From a virus (Duplodnaviria > Heunggongvirae > Uroviricota > Caudoviricetes), in the IMG/VR virus record IMGVR_UViG_2706794681_000016: a stretch of DNA of 7,056 bases. One strand, written 5' to 3'. Below are positions 1 to 7,056 of the stretch, one piece after another. A program made the translations under genes and the position numbers. Under the pieces are notes generated by a model, which made no database searches, was not told the DNA's origin, and saw only the letters and a program-made list of their open reading frames with translations. How positions within the stretch are numbered: position 1 is the stretch's first letter; every line of letters starts with the position of its first letter.

Positions 1-75
1 GAACAGGAGGGACAGCTGATAGAAACAGAAGCCACTGGAGCACCTCAAAAACACCATCATACACTAAATCAGTAA

Positions 76-588
76 GTTGGCAGCATCACCGGGGGCGCAG
101 ACCCTGATTATGTTATCTGGGCGAAAGAAGTTCAGGGTATTAACCGTGCATGGACTTTCAGACACTGGAAAGGCACTGGAACGGTTGGCGTGATGGTGGC
201 GACAAACGATCCGGAACGCCCGGCCCCGGATGAAAGCGTGATTAACGCAGTCAGGGACCACATCCTTCCTCTGGCACCTGTTGCCGGAAGCGGATTGTAT
301 GTATTCGGTGCCACAGAAAAAGTCATCCCGATGACGATTGCATTATCGAAAGACACACCGCAGATCAGGACTGCAATAAAAGCAGAGCTGAATGCACTGA
401 TGTTACGGGATGGTGTGCCAGAGGGGCGTATGTATCTGTCCAGAATCAGTGAGGCCATCAGTTTGTCTGCTGGTGAAGTGGCCCACCGGTTAATCGTCCC
501 TTCATCGGATATTGACCTGGGGGAGACCGAGCTTCCGGTGCTCGGCGAGATCACCTGGCAGGCTTATGACCCGGCAAGGAGTAAATAA
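76..588 (+). pseudogene. baseplate J-like protein, C-terminal fragment (5'-truncated)
   Basis: Frame 1 is open from 76 to TAA 586-588 and reads ...GGADPDYVIWAKEVQGINRAWTF..., which I recognise as the conserved C-terminal region of P2 gpJ / Mu gp47 baseplate proteins. There is an in-frame TAA at 73-75 and no ATG/GTG/TTG before GTG 190, so at most ~170 codons of a normally ~300-370 aa protein are present. Family call is from memory. Confidence 0.5.
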
Positions 589-1178
589 TGGATTCGTTAC
601 AGGATGATTATACAAAGCTGCTGTACGGACTGATGCCGCCGGGGCCTGCATGGTCAGATACCGACGGTGTACTTGACGGTCTGGCACCATCGCTTGTGCG
701 TGTTCACCAGCGGGCTGATGAACTGGTGATTGAAATCGATCCCGGTCAGTCCACAGAGCTGATTGAACGTTATGAAGAATTGTATGGTTTACCTGATTCC
801 TGTTCCCCTGTCGGAACCCAGACATTACGCCAGCGTCAGCAACGTCTTGAAGCAAAAGCCAATGTGGCTGGTGGCATAAATGAGCAGTTCTTCCTGGATC
901 AGCTTGAGGCGCTGGGATATACCGGCGTAACGATCGAACAGTTCCAGCACTTGGATGCAAGCCCCGATCCGGAATGGGGAGATCGCTGGCGTTATTTCTG
1001 GCGTGTGACGTTGCCGATGGATGCCGGTGCTCAGTGGCAGACATGCACGGACGCCTGCAACACACCGATCCGGACGTGGGGGGATACGGTTGCGGAGTGC
1101 GTGATTAATAAATTATGTCCGTCACACACCGTCGTTTTATTTTCCTATCCAGATGAGGATGAAGATGCACAGGATTGA
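588..1178 (+). CDS. phage tail protein, Mu gp48 / DUF2313 (YmfQ-like)
   Basis: 196-aa ORF; ATG 588 overlaps the upstream stop (TAATG) with AAGGA 9 nt upstream. The product (MDSLQDDYTKLLYGLMPPGPAW...YEELYGLP...) resembles the DUF2313 tail proteins that precede the fibre gene in Mu and e14-type tail modules. Position between baseplate J and the tail fibre fits. Confidence 0.7.
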   Translation: MDSLQDDYTKLLYGLMPPGPAWSDTDGVLDGLAPSLVRVHQRADELVIEIDPGQSTELIERYEELYGLPDSCSPVGTQTLRQRQQRLEAKANVAGGINEQFFLDQLEALGYTGVTIEQFQHLDASPDPEWGDRWRYFWRVTLPMDAGAQWQTCTDACNTPIRTWGDTVAECVINKLCPSHTVVLFSYPDEDEDAQD

Positions 1179-2205
1179 TACGCTGACTGCGGTAAAAGAT
1201 AAGTTTGGTCCGGGTAAGAACGGATTTACTGACGGAAATCTTCGCACAGGACGTCTTGCTACCTGGCTGAACAGTGCCATGTGGAATGCCATTCAGGAGG
1301 AAATCTGTGGTGTCATTGAGAAGGCCGGGATAGAACTGAATAAAGAAGAACACGACCAGCTATATAAGGCTATATTATTGCTGGTGGGCGGTGCAATTAA
1401 CGAAGAGGCATTGCTGATAAAAAATAACCTTTCGGATGTGGAAGACAGGGATGAGGCTGTTGAAAACCTCGGATTAAAACCCACGGTGGATAAGGCAAAA
1501 AATGCCGTTCAGCGTGATGGCGACACCATGACCGGAGAGCTGAAAATCCGTGGTGTTAATGCGCTGAGGATTTTCAACGAAGCTTTTGGCCTGATTTTTC
1601 GTCGTTCGGAAGAGTGCCTGCACCTTATTCCCACCAGTGAAGGTCAGGGGGAAAATGGCGATATTGGTCCCCTGCGCCCGTTCACCATTAATCTGCGGAC
1701 GGGTGAAATATCCATGTCGCATAAAGTGTCTGTTGGCGGTGGTTCGCAGGTCAATGGTGCGCTGGGTATCGGCGTTCAGAACGCCCTGGGGGGGAATTCA
1801 ATTGTTCTTGGTGATAATGACACCGGATTCAAACAGAATGGTGATGGCCTGCTGGATGTTTATGCCAATAGCGTGCATGTGTTGCGTTTTCAGAGTGGCA
1901 GTATCCAGAGTAATAAAGCTGTAAACGTTACAGGACGGGTAACACCGTCAGACTACGGAAACTTTGATGCCCGTTACCAGCAGCGAAATGGTGGCGTGCA
2001 GGATGTGCGGTATGGTTATGAAATGTATTACCCCCCCGGCAGTAACACCGTTTCGTGGACATTTCGCTCACCTTCGGGACACGGGCTGTCAGGGATATCG
2101 ATATCGGATACCGGCCGTAACTCAGCGGATAACGTCAACGGCGTGTATTACCGACCGCTGCAAAAACTGATTAATGGCACCTGGTATAACGTAGCGAGTA
2201 TTTAA
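1165..2205 (+). CDS. tail fibre protein (P2 gpH / Mu S-like C-terminal receptor-binding region)
   Basis: ORF open from 1153; ATG 1165 is preferred because GAGGA lies 5 nt upstream (1153 and 1159 are alternatives). The C-terminal segment ...ALGGNSIVLGDNDTGFKQNGDGLLDVYANS...INGTWYNVASI matches the conserved distal motif of P2 gpH-type fibres as I recall it; the N-terminal ~60 aa resemble a fibre attachment domain. Confidence 0.8.
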   Translation: MHRIDTLTAVKDKFGPGKNGFTDGNLRTGRLATWLNSAMWNAIQEEICGVIEKAGIELNKEEHDQLYKAILLLVGGAINEEALLIKNNLSDVEDRDEAVENLGLKPTVDKAKNAVQRDGDTMTGELKIRGVNALRIFNEAFGLIFRRSEECLHLIPTSEGQGENGDIGPLRPFTINLRTGEISMSHKVSVGGGSQVNGALGIGVQNALGGNSIVLGDNDTGFKQNGDGLLDVYANSVHVLRFQSGSIQSNKAVNVTGRVTPSDYGNFDARYQQRNGGVQDVRYGYEMYYPPGSNTVSWTFRSPSGHGLSGISISDTGRNSADNVNGVYYRPLQKLINGTWYNVASI

Positions 2206-2207
2206 CA

Positions 2208-2753
2208 ATGTTGCATTTAAAAAATATTACGGCAGGTAATCCGAAAACCGCGGAATAATATCAGCTGACAAAACAGTATGATGTCACCTGGCTTTTTTCG
2301 GAAGACGGCAAAAACTGGTATGAAGAACAGAAGAACTTTGCCAGTGACACCATAAAAATGGTTTACACCGGAGACGGGCGCGTGGTGTGGGTCGGTAAGG
2401 ATGTGACAGGCATTGAACCCCGTAACGCCAGTGTTATTGAAGTTCCTGATATTACCGCCAACCGCCGCATTACCGCGCCGGGTTACTGGTTTTACCGCAA
2501 TGATGAATTTGTCTTTGACTACAGACTCAAAGCGGAAGATGAGCGTGATGCCCTTCTGGCTCAGGTCAGTGCCCGGACAGGGGAATGGGAAGAAGACCTG
2601 CTGCTGGGGCTAATCAGCGACGAAGACCGGGAAAAACTGAAAGCGTACCGTATTTACGCGAAATCGCTGCAGGCGATGGATTTCAGCACCATCACTGATA
2701 AATCCTCATATAACGCCATTGAATGGTCCGTCTCTCCGGAAGGTTCTTCCTGA
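2208..2753 (+). pseudogene. tail fibre assembly chaperone (Tfa family) with in-frame TAA at codon 17
   Basis: ATG 2208 lies 2 nt after the fibre stop and reads MLHLKNITAGNPKTAE, then TAA at 2256-2258, then continues in the same frame as YQLTKQYDVTWLFSEDGKNWYEEQKNF... to 2753. Both the N-terminus and the C-terminal ...IEWSVSPE match the TfaQ/TfaR/lambda-Tfa family from memory. The largest uninterrupted ORF is 2358..2753 (131 aa) with no obvious RBS. Confidence 0.6.
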
Positions 2754-2776
2754 TTTAATTTATCGCGAGAAAAACT

Positions 2777-4045
2777 ATGTCTGTAGTGATATCAGGTGCG
2801 CTGACTGATGGCGCAGGCATCCCCATGTCCGGATGCCAGATTATTCTGAAATCCCGTGTAAACACCTCAGAAGTGGTGATGCGTACCAGGGCTGATGTAG
2901 TGACCGGAAATAACGGTGAATATTCGTTTGAGGCACAGGTCGGAAAATATTGCGTGTATCTGAAACGGGACTGGCGCGACGAGTACTGTGTTGGCGACAT
3001 TGCTGTATACGACGACTCAAAGCCCGGCACGCTGAATGACTTTCTGATTGCTCCTGATGAGGGCGACCTGAAACCGGATGTCGTCAAACGCTTTGAGGAA
3101 ATGGTGGCGCAGGCGCAGCAGAGCGCCGGGGCCGCAGCCGGAAACGCACAGCAGACGGCGCAGGATGTGGCGGCAGCCGCAGGTTATGCCCGCGCAGCAG
3201 AGCAGGCCAAAAATGACATTGATGCTGCGCTGACCGGCACTCTGAAAACGGCTAACCATCTGTCTGAAATCGCAGCAGCAGGCGAAAAGGCACAACAGAA
3301 GTCCCGGGATAATCTGGGGCTGAAAAGTGCGGCCACGATGGAAGCACAGAGCGACATTTACGACCGGACAAAAGGCCGTCTGGCGATACCCGGCGCATTC
3401 GGCTTTGGGTGTGCTTTTCTGCCTGAAGATGTTATCCGTTTTGACACTAAGAGTGATTTCCTGGCCTGGGTAAGGAATGCGCTGCCAGGTGAATATTCCG
3501 TTGCTGGCCCCTACGACATCATCATACCCGACACACGGTTTGAAGGGGTGCTCAGCATCCGGTGGACTGATGCACGCCCTGAGACAACAGAACCGAGGTA
3601 CAGAGCCAAATCCCTTACTTTTTACGGCATTAACGGCCCCATTTATCACACCCGCTACTGCTACTGGCCCATATCCAGACTGACTGGCTGGGTGAAAATA
3701 AATATAACCACAGAAGATATTATTTACAGAATCGTGGCGAGCTCTGTCTGCAACAGATGGGGAGACCCTGACATTGGCGGGCTGATTATTGCTGCGTACC
3801 AGGGAGAAGCTGACGGTGATAAAGTCATCAGACTTGTCAGGGGGCAGTCATACAGAGGCTCACGACTGGGACCGGTGGGGATTTCAGTGCCCAGTACTCC
3901 CACCGGAACGTATATAGCATCCCCACAATTTTTCATTACGGGATGTTCAGAGCATTCATTACCGGGGTCATATAGCGCCCTGTCCGGGGTGCCGGATGCT
4001 CATGTCTCTGGCGCAATGCCCGGGCTTTTTATTCGCACATCGTGA
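2777..4045 (+). CDS. side tail fibre protein, lambda Stf-like N-terminal domain, Ala-rich shaft, unassigned C-terminal domain
   Basis: 422-aa ORF. The N-terminus MSVVISGALTDGAGIPMSGCQIILKSRVNTSEVV...VYDDSKPGTLNDFL parallels lambda Stf (MAVKISGVLKDGTGKPVQNCTIQLKARRN...YEDSQPGTLNDFL) as I recall it. An Ala/Gln-rich low-complexity linker follows (~3100..3300); the C-terminal ~230 aa have no motif I recognise. Confidence 0.8.
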   Translation: MSVVISGALTDGAGIPMSGCQIILKSRVNTSEVVMRTRADVVTGNNGEYSFEAQVGKYCVYLKRDWRDEYCVGDIAVYDDSKPGTLNDFLIAPDEGDLKPDVVKRFEEMVAQAQQSAGAAAGNAQQTAQDVAAAAGYARAAEQAKNDIDAALTGTLKTANHLSEIAAAGEKAQQKSRDNLGLKSAATMEAQSDIYDRTKGRLAIPGAFGFGCAFLPEDVIRFDTKSDFLAWVRNALPGEYSVAGPYDIIIPDTRFEGVLSIRWTDARPETTEPRYRAKSLTFYGINGPIYHTRYCYWPISRLTGWVKINITTEDIIYRIVASSVCNRWGDPDIGGLIIAAYQGEADGDKVIRLVRGQSYRGSRLGPVGISVPSTPTGTYIASPQFFITGCSEHSLPGSYSALSGVPDAHVSGAMPGLFIRTS

Positions 4046-4055
4046 GGAATGCACC

Positions 4056-4785
4056 GTGGAAATTAAAAAAATCATTAATCCCCGTTATACCGAAAGTGGC
4101 GCAGTAGACTGTGACGTTTTTTTTGACGACAGGGACCAGGCAGTCCCCTACACAGCCACCGCTGATGATGTCGCACCGACGGGTCAGCGAATCTGGCAGG
4201 AACTGCAAAGTGGCAAATGGGGTGAGATAGCCCCATTCACTGTGACACCAGAAATGCTGGAAGCGGCCAGAGAGGCCAGACGTCAGGAAATTGAAGCATG
4301 GCGCACAGAACAGGAGGCGAAGCCGTTCACGTTTGAATGGAACGGTCGTATCTGGAATGCTGGCCCCAACTCACTGGGCCGCCTGTCCCCGGTAGTCATG
4401 CTGGCAAAATCTGTCACAGCACAAACNNNNNNNNNNNNNNNNNNNNNNNNNNNNNNNNNNNNNNNNNNNNNNNNNNNNNNNNNNNNNNNNNNNNNNNNNN
4501 NNNNNNNNNNNNNNNNNNNNNNNNNNNNNNNNNNACTCACTGGGCCGCCTGTCCCCGGTAGTCATGCTGGCAAAATCTGTCACAGCACAAACGCATATGG
4601 CGTGGGGTGATGCCGATAATCAGCAGGTGAAACTGTCGATGCCGGAACTGGAAGAACTGGCGGCAGCAATGGTGCAGGCGCAGGTCGATCGCAACGATGA
4701 GATTTATCGCCGTCAGCGTGAAATGAAAGAGGAGCTGAGTGGTCTGGAGGATTTGGGAACAATTAGAGCGTTTGATGTTACGTAA
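4056..4785 (+). CDS. putative tail fibre assembly chaperone (interrupted by assembly gap)
   Basis: GTG 4056 lies 6 nt after GAGGAA (4044-4049). The ORF runs into the N gap in frame 0 and resumes in frame 1 to TAA 4783-4785. Removing the 166-nt offset between the duplicated gap flanks gives one continuous ~187-aa ORF. Function is inferred mainly from its position immediately downstream of a fibre gene; family is uncertain. Confidence 0.5.
4369..4426. repeat. 58-bp direct repeat, copy 1 (left flank of assembly gap)
   Basis: actcactgggccgcctgtccccggtagtcatgctggcaaaatctgtcacagcacaaac is identical to 4535..4592. Confidence 0.9.
4427..4534. other. assembly gap (108 N)
   Basis: Uninterrupted run of N seen directly in the sequence. 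Confidence 0.97.
4535..4592. repeat. 58-bp direct repeat, copy 2 (right flank of assembly gap)
   Basis: Identical to 4369..4426; looks like an unmerged contig overlap. Confidence 0.9.
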
Positions 4786-4831
4786 TTGGTAAGCTGCATC
4801 GTGTTAAATTGTTACCCTTATTTACAACTAG

Positions 4832-4865
4832 AAAAGCCTCTGACTTCATAATCAGAGGCTTTTTT
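4832..4865 (+). terminator. rho-independent terminator (partly bidirectional)
   Basis: Perfect 12-bp stem aaaagcctctga (4832-4843) / tcagaggctttt (4852-4863) with an 8-nt loop, followed by a T6 run on the + strand. On the minus strand the hairpin is followed by TTTTC, so it may also act on transcripts reading through from ssrA. Confidence 0.65.
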
Positions 4866-4866
4866 G

Positions 4867-4882
4867 AAATGCACGTGCATTT
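4867..4882. repeat. perfect 16-bp palindrome AAATGCACGTGCATTT
   Basis: Seen directly in the sequence; lies between the terminator and the ssrA 3' end. Function unknown. Confidence 0.9.
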
Positions 4883-4983
4883 TGCGTGTATATTTTTGTC
4901 TTTTTCTGGTCCGCTTACTGTCTGGTCAGTGTCCGTAAGTGACTGTTTTTATAGTCTCTGTCCGGTTGCAGTCCTGTCAAAAG

Positions 4984-5346
4984 TGGTGGAGCTGGCGGGA
5001 GTTGAACCCGCGTCCGAAATTCCTACATCCTCGGTACTACATGCTTAGTCAGTCTTTACATTCGCTTGCCAGCTGCGGACGGACACGCCACTAACAAACT
5101 AGCCTGATTAAGTTTTAACGCTTCAACCCCAGGCAGGGCTTCCACGCGATCTCTTTTGGGTTTGACCTCTCTTGATCCCCGTCCTAAGAGCGGAGGCTAG
5201 GGAGAGAGGGCTCTAAGCAGGTTATTAAGCTGCTAAAGCGTAGTTTTCGTCGTTTGCGACTATTTTTTGCGGCTTTTTACGAGGCCAACCGCCCCTCGGC
5301 ATGCACCTTGGGTTTCGCAAATCCCGTCGAATCCAGAATCAGCCCC
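4984..5346 (-). ncRNA. ssrA: tmRNA (transfer-messenger RNA)
   Basis: 363-nt minus-strand match to the E. coli tmRNA as I recall it: 5' GGGGCTGATTCTGGATTCGACGGG... to 3' ...GGGTTCAACTCCCGCCAGCTCCACCA. The tag reading frame on the minus strand (plus coordinates 5257..5225) encodes ANDENYALAA followed by a stop. Confidence 0.95.
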
Positions 5347-5392
5347 AATGTGTAAAGGTAAGTATACCAGATTTATGAGCGCCATGACCAGC
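5347..5392 (-). promoter_or_regulatory. candidate ssrA promoter
   Basis: Minus-strand TATACT (plus 5361-5366) lies 14 nt upstream of the mature 5' end, consistent with a short processed leader. A weak -35-like TGGTCA (plus 5385-5390) sits at 18-bp spacing. Hexamer match only. Confidence 0.35.
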
Positions 5393-5560
5393 CTCAATGG
5401 CGTTATCGTTAAAGATTTAGCACCCATGTAGCCTGATTTTTATTCGATTAAGCAATGGGATGGCAACATTTGTGTCGGATGTGATAGCCAATAAGATGTT
5501 CATTCGCGCCGCCGGAGAGGGAGGCGCGGTGAGGAACTGGTCAATAATTGGAGTGCAGGT

Positions 5561-6043
5561 TTAACGGTGGGCGTTTTTCATGATACGTGCTTTATCCACC
5601 TGCCATTCGCGTTCTTTGATATCTGAACGTTTATCGTGCTGTTTTTTACCTTTGGCGACGCCGATTTTCACTTTGCACCAGGCATTTTTCCAGTACAGGG
5701 AGAGCGCCACTACGGTATAGCCTTCTCGATTGACGCGACCGTACAATGAGTCCAGTTCGCGCTGGTTGAGAAGTAACTTGCGGGTACGGGTAGGATCGCA
5801 CACCACATGCGTGGAGGCCACGGCCATTGGCGTGATGTTAGCGCCAAACAGAAATGCCTCTCCGTCACGCAGAAGGACGTAGCTGTCGCTGATATTGGCT
5901 TTTCCTGCGCGCAGGGATTTAACTTCCCAGCCTTGCAGGGCAAGTCCCGCTTCGAACTCTTCTTCGATAAAGTATTCGTGACGGGCGCGCTTGTTAAGCG
6001 CGATGGTCGCTGAACCAGGTTTATGTGCTTTTTTCTTCGTCAT
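5561..6043 (-). CDS. smpB: SsrA-binding protein SmpB
   Basis: 160-aa ORF ([25 protein letters not shown]...IMKNAHR) matching E. coli SmpB from memory; ATG at 6041-6043 (minus) and TAA at 5561-5563; located directly upstream of ssrA on the same strand. Confidence 0.95.
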
Positions 6044-6174
6044 AAGCGTCGTGAATCATCGGTAATCTGAAATCGAAAACACCCCATATCAATCCTGCGG
6101 GGGACAAGGCTCTATCTTAGCATGAACCCGATGTTACCCAGCGCCGGGATAGCGTTTTTTTTACAGCAGGATAA

Positions 6175-6651
6175 ATGATATTATTTGTTGGATTTTTGTT
6201 GATGGAAATAGTTATGCCTCAGATTAGCCGGACCGCACTGGTACCCTACAGCGCGGAGCAAATGTATCAGTTAGTGAATGACGTTCAGTCTTATCCTCAG
6301 TTTTTGCCGGGTTGTACCGGAAGTCGGATTCTGGAGTCCACTCCTGGGCAGATGACTGCGGCGGTAGATGTCTCTAAGGCTGGGATCAGCAAAACGTTTA
6401 CTACCCGCAACCAGTTGACCAGTAACCAAAGTATTCTTATGAATCTGGTGGATGGGCCGTTCAAGAAATTGATTGGTGGATGGAAGTTTACGCCGCTGAG
6501 CCAGGAGGCGTGTCGTATCGAGTTTCATCTCGACTTTGAGTTTACCAATAAGTTGATTGAACTCGCCTTTGGTCGCGTGTTTAAAGAGCTGGCGTCTAAT
6601 ATGGTCCAGGCTTTTACGGTTCGTGCGAAAGAGGTTTACAGTGCTAGGTAA
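6175..6651 (+). CDS. ratA: RatA/PasT (SRPBCC, Coq10-like protein)
   Basis: 158-aa ORF ([43 protein letters not shown]...) matching E. coli RatA/YfjG as I recall it; AGGA 5 nt upstream of ATG 6175; divergent from smpB as in E. coli. An internal ATG at 6214 is an alternative start. Confidence 0.9.
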
Positions 6652-6931
6652 AATTGCCGTTGAGGTGGCTTATGCGCTACCTGAGAAGCAGTACCTGCAG
6701 CGCGTGACGCTGCAGGAGGGCGCGACGGTTGAAGAAGCTATTCGCGCCAGTGGCTTGCTGGAATTGCGTACCGATATCGATTTAACTAAAAACAAAGTCG
6801 GCATTTACAGCCGTCCGGCAAAACTAAGCGATAGTGTGCATGATGGCGATCGGGTGGAGATTTATCGCCCTCTCATTGCCGATCCGAAAGAGCTTCGCAG
6901 GCAACGAGCAGAAAAATCAGCGAATAAATAA
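6641..6931 (+). CDS. ratB: RatB (UPF0125 / RnfH-like protein)
   Basis: GTG 6641 gives a 96-aa product ([28 protein letters not shown]...AEKSANK) matching the E. coli YfjF/RatB length and sequence as I recall them. It overlaps the last 11 nt of ratA. The longer ORF from ATG 6557 (124 aa) would overlap ratA by 95 nt and is less likely. Confidence 0.85.
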
Positions 6932-7008
6932 CAGACAGAAAAAAGGTGCTCATTGAGCTAATGCCGATCAGTTAAGGATCAGTTGACCGATCCAGTGGCT
7001 GTGTAAGA

Positions 7009-7042
7009 ATCCGGAAACGCTCACTTGTTTCCGGATTTTTTT
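7009..7042 (+). terminator. rho-independent terminator downstream of ratB
   Basis: 10-bp stem atccggaaac (7009-7018) / gtttccggat (7027-7036), 8-nt loop, then a T7 run (7036-7042). Confidence 0.7.
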
Positions 7043-7056
7043 ATGCACATTGGACA

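Follow-up and report, generated by a model that had tools for sequence, protein, structure and literature searches.

The stretch of DNA analysed here (the window, 7,056 nucleotides) was 99.9 to 100% identical to complete Shigella sonnei genomes, including CP022457.1 and HE616528.1, which published papers assign to S. sonnei 2015C-3566 and S. sonnei 53G, respectively. The scaffold starts inside an IS1 element and ends inside an IS4 element, and it carries the following features.

1 to 90, minus strand: last 90 bp of IS1, covering the left inverted repeat and the first part of insA, 100% identical to IS1 ends
91 to 99: 9-bp IS1 target-site duplication, GGGGGCGCA, right-hand copy, with its twin directly left of IS1 in a complete S. 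sonnei genome locus (L009)
91 to 588, plus strand: 3' part of the baseplate J (gp47) gene, codons 196 to 360, cut from its 5' part by IS1 (Pfam Baseplate_J)
588 to 1178, plus strand: intact Mu gp48/YmfQ-family baseplate protein, 196 aa (Pfam PF10076, E value 2.3e-25)
1165 to 2205, plus strand: tail fibre protein, 346 aa from the publicly annotated start, in an open reading frame from 1153 (C311 similarity, gene calls)
2208 to 2753, plus strand: tail fibre assembly gene tfa (Caudo_TAP), a pseudogene (tblastn; Pfam PF02413 on the downstream part)
2777 to 4045, plus strand: second fibre with a prophage tail fibre N-terminal domain, 422 aa, intact (Pfam PF08400, E value 2.4e-63)
3996 to 4785, plus strand: DUF4376 gene, putative fibre chaperone (Pfam PF14301)
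4427 to 4534: 108 consecutive N between the two copies of an exact 58-bp duplicate (4369 to 4426 and 4535 to 4592; repeat search)
4829 to 4866: phage-borne hairpin with U-runs on both strands (folding)
4984 to 5008: 25-bp att core at the ssrA 3' end, TGGTGGAGCTGGCGGGAGTTGAACC, identical to phiNP attP/attB
4984 to 5346, minus strand: complete ssrA (tmRNA) (ARAGORN; Rfam RF00023, 295.8 bits, model positions 1 to 374)
5561 to 6043, minus strand: smpB (Pfam SmpB)
ending at 6651, plus strand: ratA (Pfam Polyketide_cyc)
6641 to 6931, plus strand: yfjF/rnfH (Pfam Ub-RnfH)
6948 to 7056, plus strand: IS4 target duplication, GCTCATTGAGC (6948 to 6958), and the first 98 bp of IS4 (6959 to 7056; sequence comparison)

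Tail module and the run of N

The tail module reads, on the plus strand, J', gp48, fibre, tfa, second fibre, and DUF4376, with Pfam matches to Baseplate_J (C-terminal part only), Phage_Mu_Gp48, Caudo_TAP, phage_tail_N, and DUF4376; all the proteins could be matched clearly to a family. The order J (gp47), gp48, fibre, and Tfa, together with similarity to phage phiP27, identifies it as a phiP27-like, Mu-type tail module. The gp48 protein is equal in length to that of Escherichia coli C311, and the first tail fibre shares 89.9% amino-acid identity over 346 aa with a "phage tail protein" of that strain. The exact sequence of the 422-aa fibre is named as a Shigella sonnei protein and occurs on 674 contigs. 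In tblastn, the 181-aa Tfa of C311 and FDAARGOS_944 aligned to positions 2208 to 2750, across an in-frame TAA at 2256 to 2258 (codon 17); the frame reads TAE-stop-YQL, and the C311 protein has TAEQYQM at the same place.

Positions 1 to 4426 of the window correspond to 7225 to 11650 of L009 and positions 4535 to 7056 to 11593 to 14114, with an overlap of 58 bp. Judged by this comparison, the run of N is evidently two overlapping contig ends joined by the scaffolder and not a biological feature. The true DUF4376 gene encodes 207 aa and is uninterrupted at L009 11220 to 11843; its break in the window is evidently due solely to the scaffold artefact. The run of N, the tfa nonsense codon, and the IS4 end at 6959 to 7056 were features that the earlier note on this DNA had missed.

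IS1 in the baseplate J gene and the sequence beyond the window

All statements on sequence beyond positions 1 to 7056 come from near-identical complete S. sonnei genomes. Positions 1 to 90 are 100% identical to the IS1 left end in at least 5,000 plasmid records annotated as IS1 family. The full element, 768 bp at L009 6547 to 7314, is known only from the complete genomes, the window holding its last 90 bp and one copy of the duplication. The J fragment in the window matches Baseplate_J profile positions 132 to 255 of 255, and the first 594 nt of J are found immediately past the IS1. When the two flanks were joined and one copy of the duplication was dropped, an open frame of 1,083 nt resulted; its 360-aa product is 96.7% identical to the uninterrupted J of C311. 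The element bears the marks of simple transposition, being 768 bp long, with terminal repeats, a 9-bp direct duplication, and a target restored on removal. Since removal of IS1 restores the 360-aa J, it is apparent that nothing was deleted there and that the gene is split by a simple insertion, not truncated. The earlier note had held that J had lost its 5' half, with a possible deletion junction near position ~75; the missing half lies just across the duplicated target, and the true junction, 90/91, is the end of the IS1 insertion.

Upstream of the window, the order is clpB-yfiH-rluD-bamD-IS4-protease'-IS600-sheath-tube-TAC-TMP-IS1-DNA circularisation-gpP-gp45-gp46-J::IS1, giving ~10 kb more tail genes beyond the IS1 in J, back to the sheath gene. 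A second IS1 after the tape-measure gene (TMP) splits the next open reading frame, and an IS600 joins codon 119 of the prohead protease gene to the start of the sheath gene, in place of the capsid-to-tail-terminator genes. A look upstream for tail or host genes, as the earlier note proposed, finds both, tail genes to the sheath and host bamD, with IS600, the protease fragment, and IS4 between them. Of the two things that would have told against the same note, an intact J gene and a complete prophage with integrase contiguous to the window, the J frame is recovered on removal of IS1, and the contiguous prophage is absent from the complete genomes sampled.

The other half of the prophage reads ypjA'-IS3 family-dnaB-rusA-Q-lysis-HNH-TerS-TerL-portal-IS4, followed by bamE or raiA, and ends at the IS3-family/ypjA junction without an att core or integrase. 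Both halves are present in opposite orientation in record CBDDMI010000001.1, at 883167 to 904900 and, reversed, at 918145 to 938540. Three IS4 target duplications were found (GCTCATTGAGC, CAGCCCTTGAGCTG, and GTCCCGGTGGTG), with their halves swapped between IS4 copies, which is exactly what two IS4-by-IS4 inversions predict. Rejoining IS4 site C restores the portal reading frame, and a 12-bp duplication is present at the portal IS4 site; together these rule out a loss of ~370 bp at the portal/protease IS4 site. The duplication at IS4 site B reads 14 bp, its exact length being uncertain within a palindromic hairpin; the usual IS4 duplication is shorter. No integrase of the element was found in either S. 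sonnei half or in the window, and a contiguous unit from int to tail was absent from the ~20 complete S. sonnei genomes sampled. Protein homology searches with ssrA-type integrases (from C311 and from the tandem S. sonnei prophage described below) showed the family to be widespread in Enterobacterales; they returned 90%-cluster representatives, none of them an exact S. sonnei sequence.

The ssrA attachment site and related elements

Over 363 nt, the ssrA gene does not differ from E. coli copies, and the host genes from 5561 to 6931 are 99% identical to those of E. coli. DUF4376, the last phage gene, ends at 4785, leaving 198 bp to the ssrA 3' end, and the window's list of open reading frames contains no integrase. 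In line with this, three observations of the earlier note are borne out: that ssrA is complete (by ARAGORN and Rfam RF00023), that the fibre/chaperone end lies ~200 bp from the tmRNA 3' end, and that the window lacks an integrase. The 25-bp attP/attB of Citrobacter phage phiNP, established experimentally, is identical to the att core of the window (PMC6456863). A further copy of this core lies in the C311 prophage, at the end that carries int, and phage-type sequence common to the C311 attR arm runs from 4983 downward. Phage DNA directly following a complete ssrA that ends in a known att core is the mark of an ssrA prophage. A duplicate ssrA 3' segment (attL), which the earlier note suggested seeking, was found neither in the window, which has one copy, nor in the S. 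sonnei other-half loci (L193 to L201), because of the deletion junction at IS3-family/ypjA.

Between DUF4376 and ssrA, folding revealed the hairpin at 4829 to 4866 (plus strand: -20.6 kcal/mol, z -7.05; minus strand: -20.3 kcal/mol, z -5.98), which a consensus terminator scan did not list. The hairpin is terminator-like and may serve both the late operon and read-through from ssrA. Certain S. sonnei strains carry a further prophage, which encodes an integrase of its own, between the fibre end and ssrA, leaving a ~38-bp partial ssrA copy; the ssrA integration site is therefore still usable.

The original layout is seen in an intact relative, the prophage of E. coli C311 (NZ_CP062204.1, ~1220772 to 1264423), which occupies the same ssrA site with the same module order, its fibre end adjoining a complete ssrA and its tail genes 91 to 97% identical. 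The C311 prophage, 43.6 kb long and bounded by a 32-bp exact repeat, has its fibre genes by ssrA and int and xis at the opposite end; it runs attL, int, phage through tail fibres, and attR inside ssrA; its distal integrase has Arm-DNA-binding and Phage_integrase domains. The fibre end facing ssrA, which the earlier note implied to be odd, is thus normal for this phage group, int lying at the far end by the 32-bp ssrA repeat. C311 differs in keeping int, xis, the immunity region, capsid genes, and attL, and its second fibre has 759 aa versus 422 aa in the window. Many other E. coli genomes carry fibre, DUF4376, ssrA, and smpB under a single match, and the arrangement is ordinary, already known, and present in many public genomes.

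Phage phiP27 (an Stx2e phage, AJ298298/NC_003356) shares the right-end order J, gp48, fibre, tfa, fibre, and chaperone, with 91% nucleotide identity over 61% of window positions 91 to 4800 (phiP27 37562 to 42214). The other half likewise resembles P27-like prophages in its P27-family small terminase, HK97-type head module, and Mu-type tail. phiP27 differs in integrating elsewhere (yecE); the S. sonnei copy has become defective, with several IS elements in it, and the second fibre gene and DUF4376 of the window are mosaic variants. CP4-57, a cryptic prophage of E. coli K-12, also sits at the ssrA 3' end, and intA directly follows ssrA there; this integrase-next-to-ssrA layout was also seen in E. 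coli RMDEC465 and USMARC-49610. In the window, DUF4376 and the fibre gene, on the opposite strand, come first after ssrA instead of an integrase; the integrase end is deleted, and the gene content is unrelated to that of CP4-57. The two elements are alike in that element-supplied 3' sequence matters for tmRNA, as excision of CP4-57 inactivates it (PMC10107115). The temperate myovirus phiNP of Citrobacter rodentium, which shares the 25-bp ssrA 3' core, likewise rebuilds an intact ssrA on integration (PMC6456863); it differs in being a live, spontaneously released phage, and in the phage collection searched it had no detectable nucleotide similarity to the tail module of the window.

Proposed history and competing explanations

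Taken together, these findings make it very likely that the window is the attR end of a defective phiP27-like myovirus prophage of S. sonnei, with a Mu-type baseplate and tail, immobilised and eroded by IS elements. Of the two possibilities raised by the earlier note, a remnant or the integrase-distal end of a larger prophage, both then hold: the window is the attR end, and the prophage in S. sonnei is a remnant from which int, the immunity region, attL, and head genes are gone. Intact relatives suggest that the phage integrated through a tyrosine integrase (Arm-DNA-binding and Phage_integrase) into the last 25 to 32 bp of ssrA, that the attP copy of this segment rebuilt ssrA at the tail-fibre end, and that the displaced host copy (attL) and the integrase came to lie ~43 kb off at the other end. 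As the complete S. sonnei genomes show, IS1 has since entered baseplate J with a 9-bp duplication and no sequence loss, a nonsense codon has arisen in tfa, and a second IS1 has inserted downstream of the tape-measure gene. The IS600 junction, from protease codon 119 to the sheath start, marks the loss of the capsid-to-tail-terminator genes. An IS4 entered the 3'-terminal part of the portal gene and probably recombined with IS4 copies at raiA|bamD and yfjF|bamE, and the two resulting nested inversions would have put the dnaB-to-portal half across the bamE-raiA host segment in reversed orientation. An IS3-family element joins this half to what remains of ypjA, with loss of int, xis, the immunity region, and attL; ssrA keeps its phage-supplied 3' end and the downstream hairpin. 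We infer the order of these rearrangements and their mechanism, homologous recombination between IS4 copies, from the swapped duplications. Given the IS erosion and the losses of int, attL, and head genes, the remnant would in all likelihood be unable to excise or make particles. With attL and the integrase gone and excision thus precluded, the phage-derived ssrA 3' end would be fixed in the lineage; CP4-57 of K-12 differs in this respect.

Within the window, the J frame halts abruptly at the IS1 end with nothing visible upstream, as would be seen had an IS1-mediated adjacent deletion taken the J 5' half and everything upstream, leaving a ~4.9-kb fibre cassette by ssrA. This is very improbable, however, with the 9-bp duplication on both sides of the 768-bp IS1 in complete genomes, the 5' 594 nt of J just beyond it rejoining to a 360-aa frame, and ~10 kb of further tail genes upstream; for the sequenced S. 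sonnei genomes, the duplication and the J 5' half refute it. It is likewise very improbable that the window is the integrase-distal end of an intact, inducible prophage with its integrase upstream. E. coli relatives such as C311 have exactly that layout, and a paper on S. sonnei 75/02 describes a 57-kb phiP27-like region, called "intact" by PHAST, which may lie at another locus. In S. sonnei, however, IS600, the protease fragment, IS4, and host bamD lie upstream, capsid genes are missing, the other half ends at IS3-family/ypjA without an att core or integrase, and J, tfa, and the portal gene are disrupted.

Selection might also have kept a domesticated tailocin or a fibre/adhesin cassette after loss of head and integration genes: the genes left together in one block, sheath through fibres, are all tail genes, the head genes being deleted, and many S. 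sonnei genomes share unbroken, unvarying frames for the 422-aa fibre, gp48, and DUF4376. Such uniformity would arise in any case in a young clonal species, however, and the locus lacks what a tailocin would have, namely a full and unbroken array of tail and baseplate genes that comes with dedicated lysis and regulatory genes but without head genes. IS1 divides J, tfa carries a nonsense codon, an IS1 splits the frame after the tape-measure gene, and the lysis cassette has moved off with the other half by inversion, making this reading extremely improbable. There is a slim chance that the block of gp48, fibre, 422-aa fibre, and DUF4376 is kept, with the hairpin, for a host function. The hairpin might then provide terminator or processing context for tmRNA, the block might be a reservoir of receptor-binding modules for phages integrating in tandem there, and the remnant would be more than debris.

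For the defective prophage that we favour, the case is of little importance beyond annotation hygiene: where a draft scaffold breaks off within IS copies, a gene can seem truncated and a prophage severed. The locus also offers a clean worked example of IS1, IS4, IS600, and IS3-family elements disabling and scattering an S. sonnei prophage, with swapped duplications recording two inversions. The IMG/VR matches included provirus fragments that ended near the same IS boundaries and added no further context, as well as a related S. flexneri remnant (L101).

Window content and the IS1 insertion in baseplate J

The earlier note had described a prophage tail module abutting ssrA, and this observation is largely right; all of the parts belong to well-known categories, namely a P27-like prophage, ssrA integration and IS-driven decay in Shigella. 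The fibre/chaperone end faces ssrA, which was complete by ARAGORN and Rfam, with the last phage stop codon 198 bp from the 3' end of mature ssrA (about 200 bp in the note). ORF calls confirmed that the window contains no integrase. The gp48 gene, both fibre genes and the DUF4376 gene are intact.

Features of the window (protein-coding genes from ORF calls and Pfam)
1-90: IS1 left end (100% identity)
91-588, + strand: baseplate J/gp47 gene, 3' part
588-1178, + strand: Mu gp48/YmfQ gene
1165-2205, + strand: fibre gene
2208-2753, + strand: Caudo_TAP assembly gene (tfa)
2777-4045, + strand: second fibre gene, with prophage-tail-fibre N-terminal domain
stop at 4785, + strand: DUF4376 gene
4984-5346, - strand: tmRNA gene ssrA, complete (ARAGORN and Rfam)
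5561-6043, - strand: smpB
right of smpB: ratA and yfjF/rnfH
6948-6958: IS4 target sequence GCTCATTGAGC, directly before the IS4 end
6959-7056: IS4 end

Complete chromosomes with the exact 422-aa fibre protein matched window positions 1-4426 at 99.7-99.96% and 4535-7056 at 99.9-100%. Two of the matching records are named Shigella sonnei in papers (CP022457.1, strain 2015C-3566; HE616528.1, strain 53G), and the fibre, tube, terminase and protease-fragment proteins carry S. sonnei names in source databases. In the best complete E. coli genomes, identity to the phage part is only 94-98%. A run of 108 N at 4427-4534 lies between two exact copies of a 58-bp sequence (repeat search, window 4369-4592). 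These 58 bp are precisely where the two sides overlap in complete genomes, and there DUF4376 is an unbroken 207-aa ORF; because these genomes carry a single copy without the gap, the N-run and the apparent DUF4376 break are a scaffolding artefact.

Since 1-90 is an IS1 end and 6959-7056 an IS4 end, both window termini fall within IS copies, in which draft scaffolds commonly terminate. The truncation of J was previously ascribed to loss of its 5' half, with a possible deletion junction near position ~75. Both proposals proved wrong: the J 5' part lies beyond a full-length 768-bp IS1 that has both terminal repeats and GGGGGCGCA on either flank in complete genomes, and what appeared to be a deletion is the IS1/J junction at 90/91, viewed from a draft-scaffold end. 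When the J flanks were joined and one duplication copy was removed, a 1083-nt open frame of 360 aa was restored; its product shares 96.7% identity with the intact J of E. coli C311 from end to end. IS1 entered J by simple transposition, duplicating 9 bp of target, and no sequence was deleted. The IS1-generated J fragment was found in 1137 index blocks of an assembly collection, so the insertion is widespread in S. sonnei.

Upstream of the window, complete genomes contain the remaining tail genes back to the sheath and then host genes. Leftward from IS1 these are the J 5' part, gp46, gp45, a gpP-like baseplate protein and a DNA-circularisation protein. Beyond them, a second IS1 with the 9-bp duplication CGTTAAAAC interrupts a 160-aa ORF, and after this ORF come the tape-measure gene, tail chaperone, tube and sheath.

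Original layout and the ssrA junction

The C311 prophage, an intact relative 43.6 kb long, has the same place and orientation as the window element. From the integrase end it encodes an integrase (Arm-DNA-binding plus Phage_integrase), excisionase, LexA-type repressor, replication genes, antiterminator Q, lysis genes, HNH, P27-family TerS, TerL, portal, protease and capsid, and then a Mu-type tail, J, gp48, fibres and DUF4376 up to ssrA. The 25-bp sequence TGGTGGAGCTGGCGGGAGTTGAACC at the C311 ssrA 3' end recurs just beyond the integrase end. An identical 25-bp core has been shown experimentally to serve as attP/attB of Citrobacter phage phiNP, which restores ssrA when it integrates (PMC6456863). 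The second ssrA 3' segment that the earlier note proposed to search for was present in C311, as a 32-bp exact repeat; the window holds a single copy of the core, and none was found in the S. sonnei loci holding the missing half of the prophage.

In CP4-57-type elements, as in E. coli RMDEC465 and USMARC-49610, the integrase follows ssrA, whereas here the fibre end does. This layout, with the integrase ~40 kb off, is normal for this phage group, because it is shared by C311, because a single match covers fibre, DUF4376, ssrA and smpB in many other E. coli genomes, and because the window tail module has 91% identity to phiP27 at the far right end of the phage genome. Just outside attL, C311 has another integrase-domain gene (14378-15607 of its retrieved locus) followed by further island genes, which indicates a putative tandem array of elements at ssrA.

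Over 363 nt, the window ssrA does not differ from E. coli copies that have unrelated neighbours. A hairpin at 4829-4866, with a 15-bp stem and U-runs on both strands (plus strand, -20.6 kcal/mol, z -7.05; minus strand, -20.3, z -5.98), probably terminates both the late operon and ssrA read-through. In S. sonnei CP032523.1, CP044191.1 and CP044151.1, a second prophage sits in tandem between the hairpin region and ssrA (loci L006, L010 and L019; L006 12042-21269). It carries a 391-aa integrase 69% identical to that of C311, an S24 repressor, Ash and other genes, and a partial ssrA copy of ~38 bp, containing one mismatch, lies beside the fibre end. The ssrA site is therefore still in use. Just upstream of ssrA, at 5361-5390 (-), is a sigma-70-like match (TGGTCA, 18-nt spacer, TATACT, upstream TG); such matches in that region are no more numerous than expected by chance.

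A prophage apparently split by IS elements

Taken as a whole, the element is rightly read as a prophage remnant. Leftward from the sheath lie IS600, a 120-aa call matching residues 1-119 of the 216-aa prohead protease, IS4 and the host genes bamD-rluD-yfiH-clpB. Between sheath and bamD, S. sonnei genomes lack the genes for capsid, connector, head closure, tail terminator and DUF2635 (~3.2 kb in C311). The missing half, located via the S. sonnei terminase, starts with truncated ypjA (N-terminal 459 aa), an IS3-family element and the last ~100 nt of a dnaC-like gene, and continues with dnaB, rusA, Q, ORF6N, holin, lysozyme, Rz, HNH, TerS, TerL and portal; IS4 follows, then either bamE-recN-nadK or raiA-pheA-tyrA-aroF. 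Since ypjA in E. coli sits on the far side of ssrA-attached islands and is here joined via the IS3-family element, this junction accounts for the loss of attL, int, xis, immunity region and replication-initiator genes. In several genomes the IS4 copy beside portal (L194 13068-15829; also L200, Ss046) is itself broken at ~1123 by an IS3-family element. All 181 tfa codons can be aligned with the C311 and FDAARGOS_944 proteins, but codon 17, glutamine in C311, is an in-frame TAA (2256-2258); in public annotations the tfa start is placed at 2265 or further downstream.

Comparison of IS4 copies in four genome loci (L184 5346-6771; L009 14017-15442; L194 13068-15829; L196 13068-14493) revealed flanks from three original insertion sites: A (GCTCATTGAGC, an 11-bp duplication in the yfjF/bamE interval), still intact in strain 53G and E. 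coli RMDEC465; B (CAGCCCTTGAGCTG, raiA/bamD interval); and C (GTCCCGGTGGTG, 3' end of the portal gene). The combinations observed were bamD-B-IS4-C-protease; yfjF-A-IS4-A-bamE or yfjF-A-IS4-B-raiA; and portal-C-IS4-B-raiA or portal-C-IS4-A-bamE. Rejoining the two C flanks restored the portal reading frame. The swapped duplications suggest that the prophage was split, and the bamE-raiA host segment flipped, by two nested inversions. A first recombination between inverted IS4 copies would have inverted the stretch from the protease gene to raiA, and a second would have re-inverted bamE...raiA in part of the species; the predicted products match the observed flank combinations. Both inversion states occur among S. 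sonnei genomes, and in CBDDMI010000001.1 the halves lie in opposite orientations at 883-905 kb and 918-939 kb (the latter locus reversed).

Public annotation and a related tail module

Hundreds of public genomes already contain the element in annotated form. For S. sonnei 75/02, phiP27-like prophage regions, which may or may not include this locus, are listed in a published PHAST survey.

E. coli RMDEC465, which shares site A (L003), carries ipaH. A closely related tail module, whose tube protein is identical, adjoins an ipaH (LRR plus NEL) effector gene near zinT in L182 and L187 (4.4-4.7 Mb chromosomes) and in a further RMDEC465 locus, L004. It seems to represent another family of P27-like remnants in Shigella and EIEC, and is likewise cut by IS1, IS66 and IS3-family elements.
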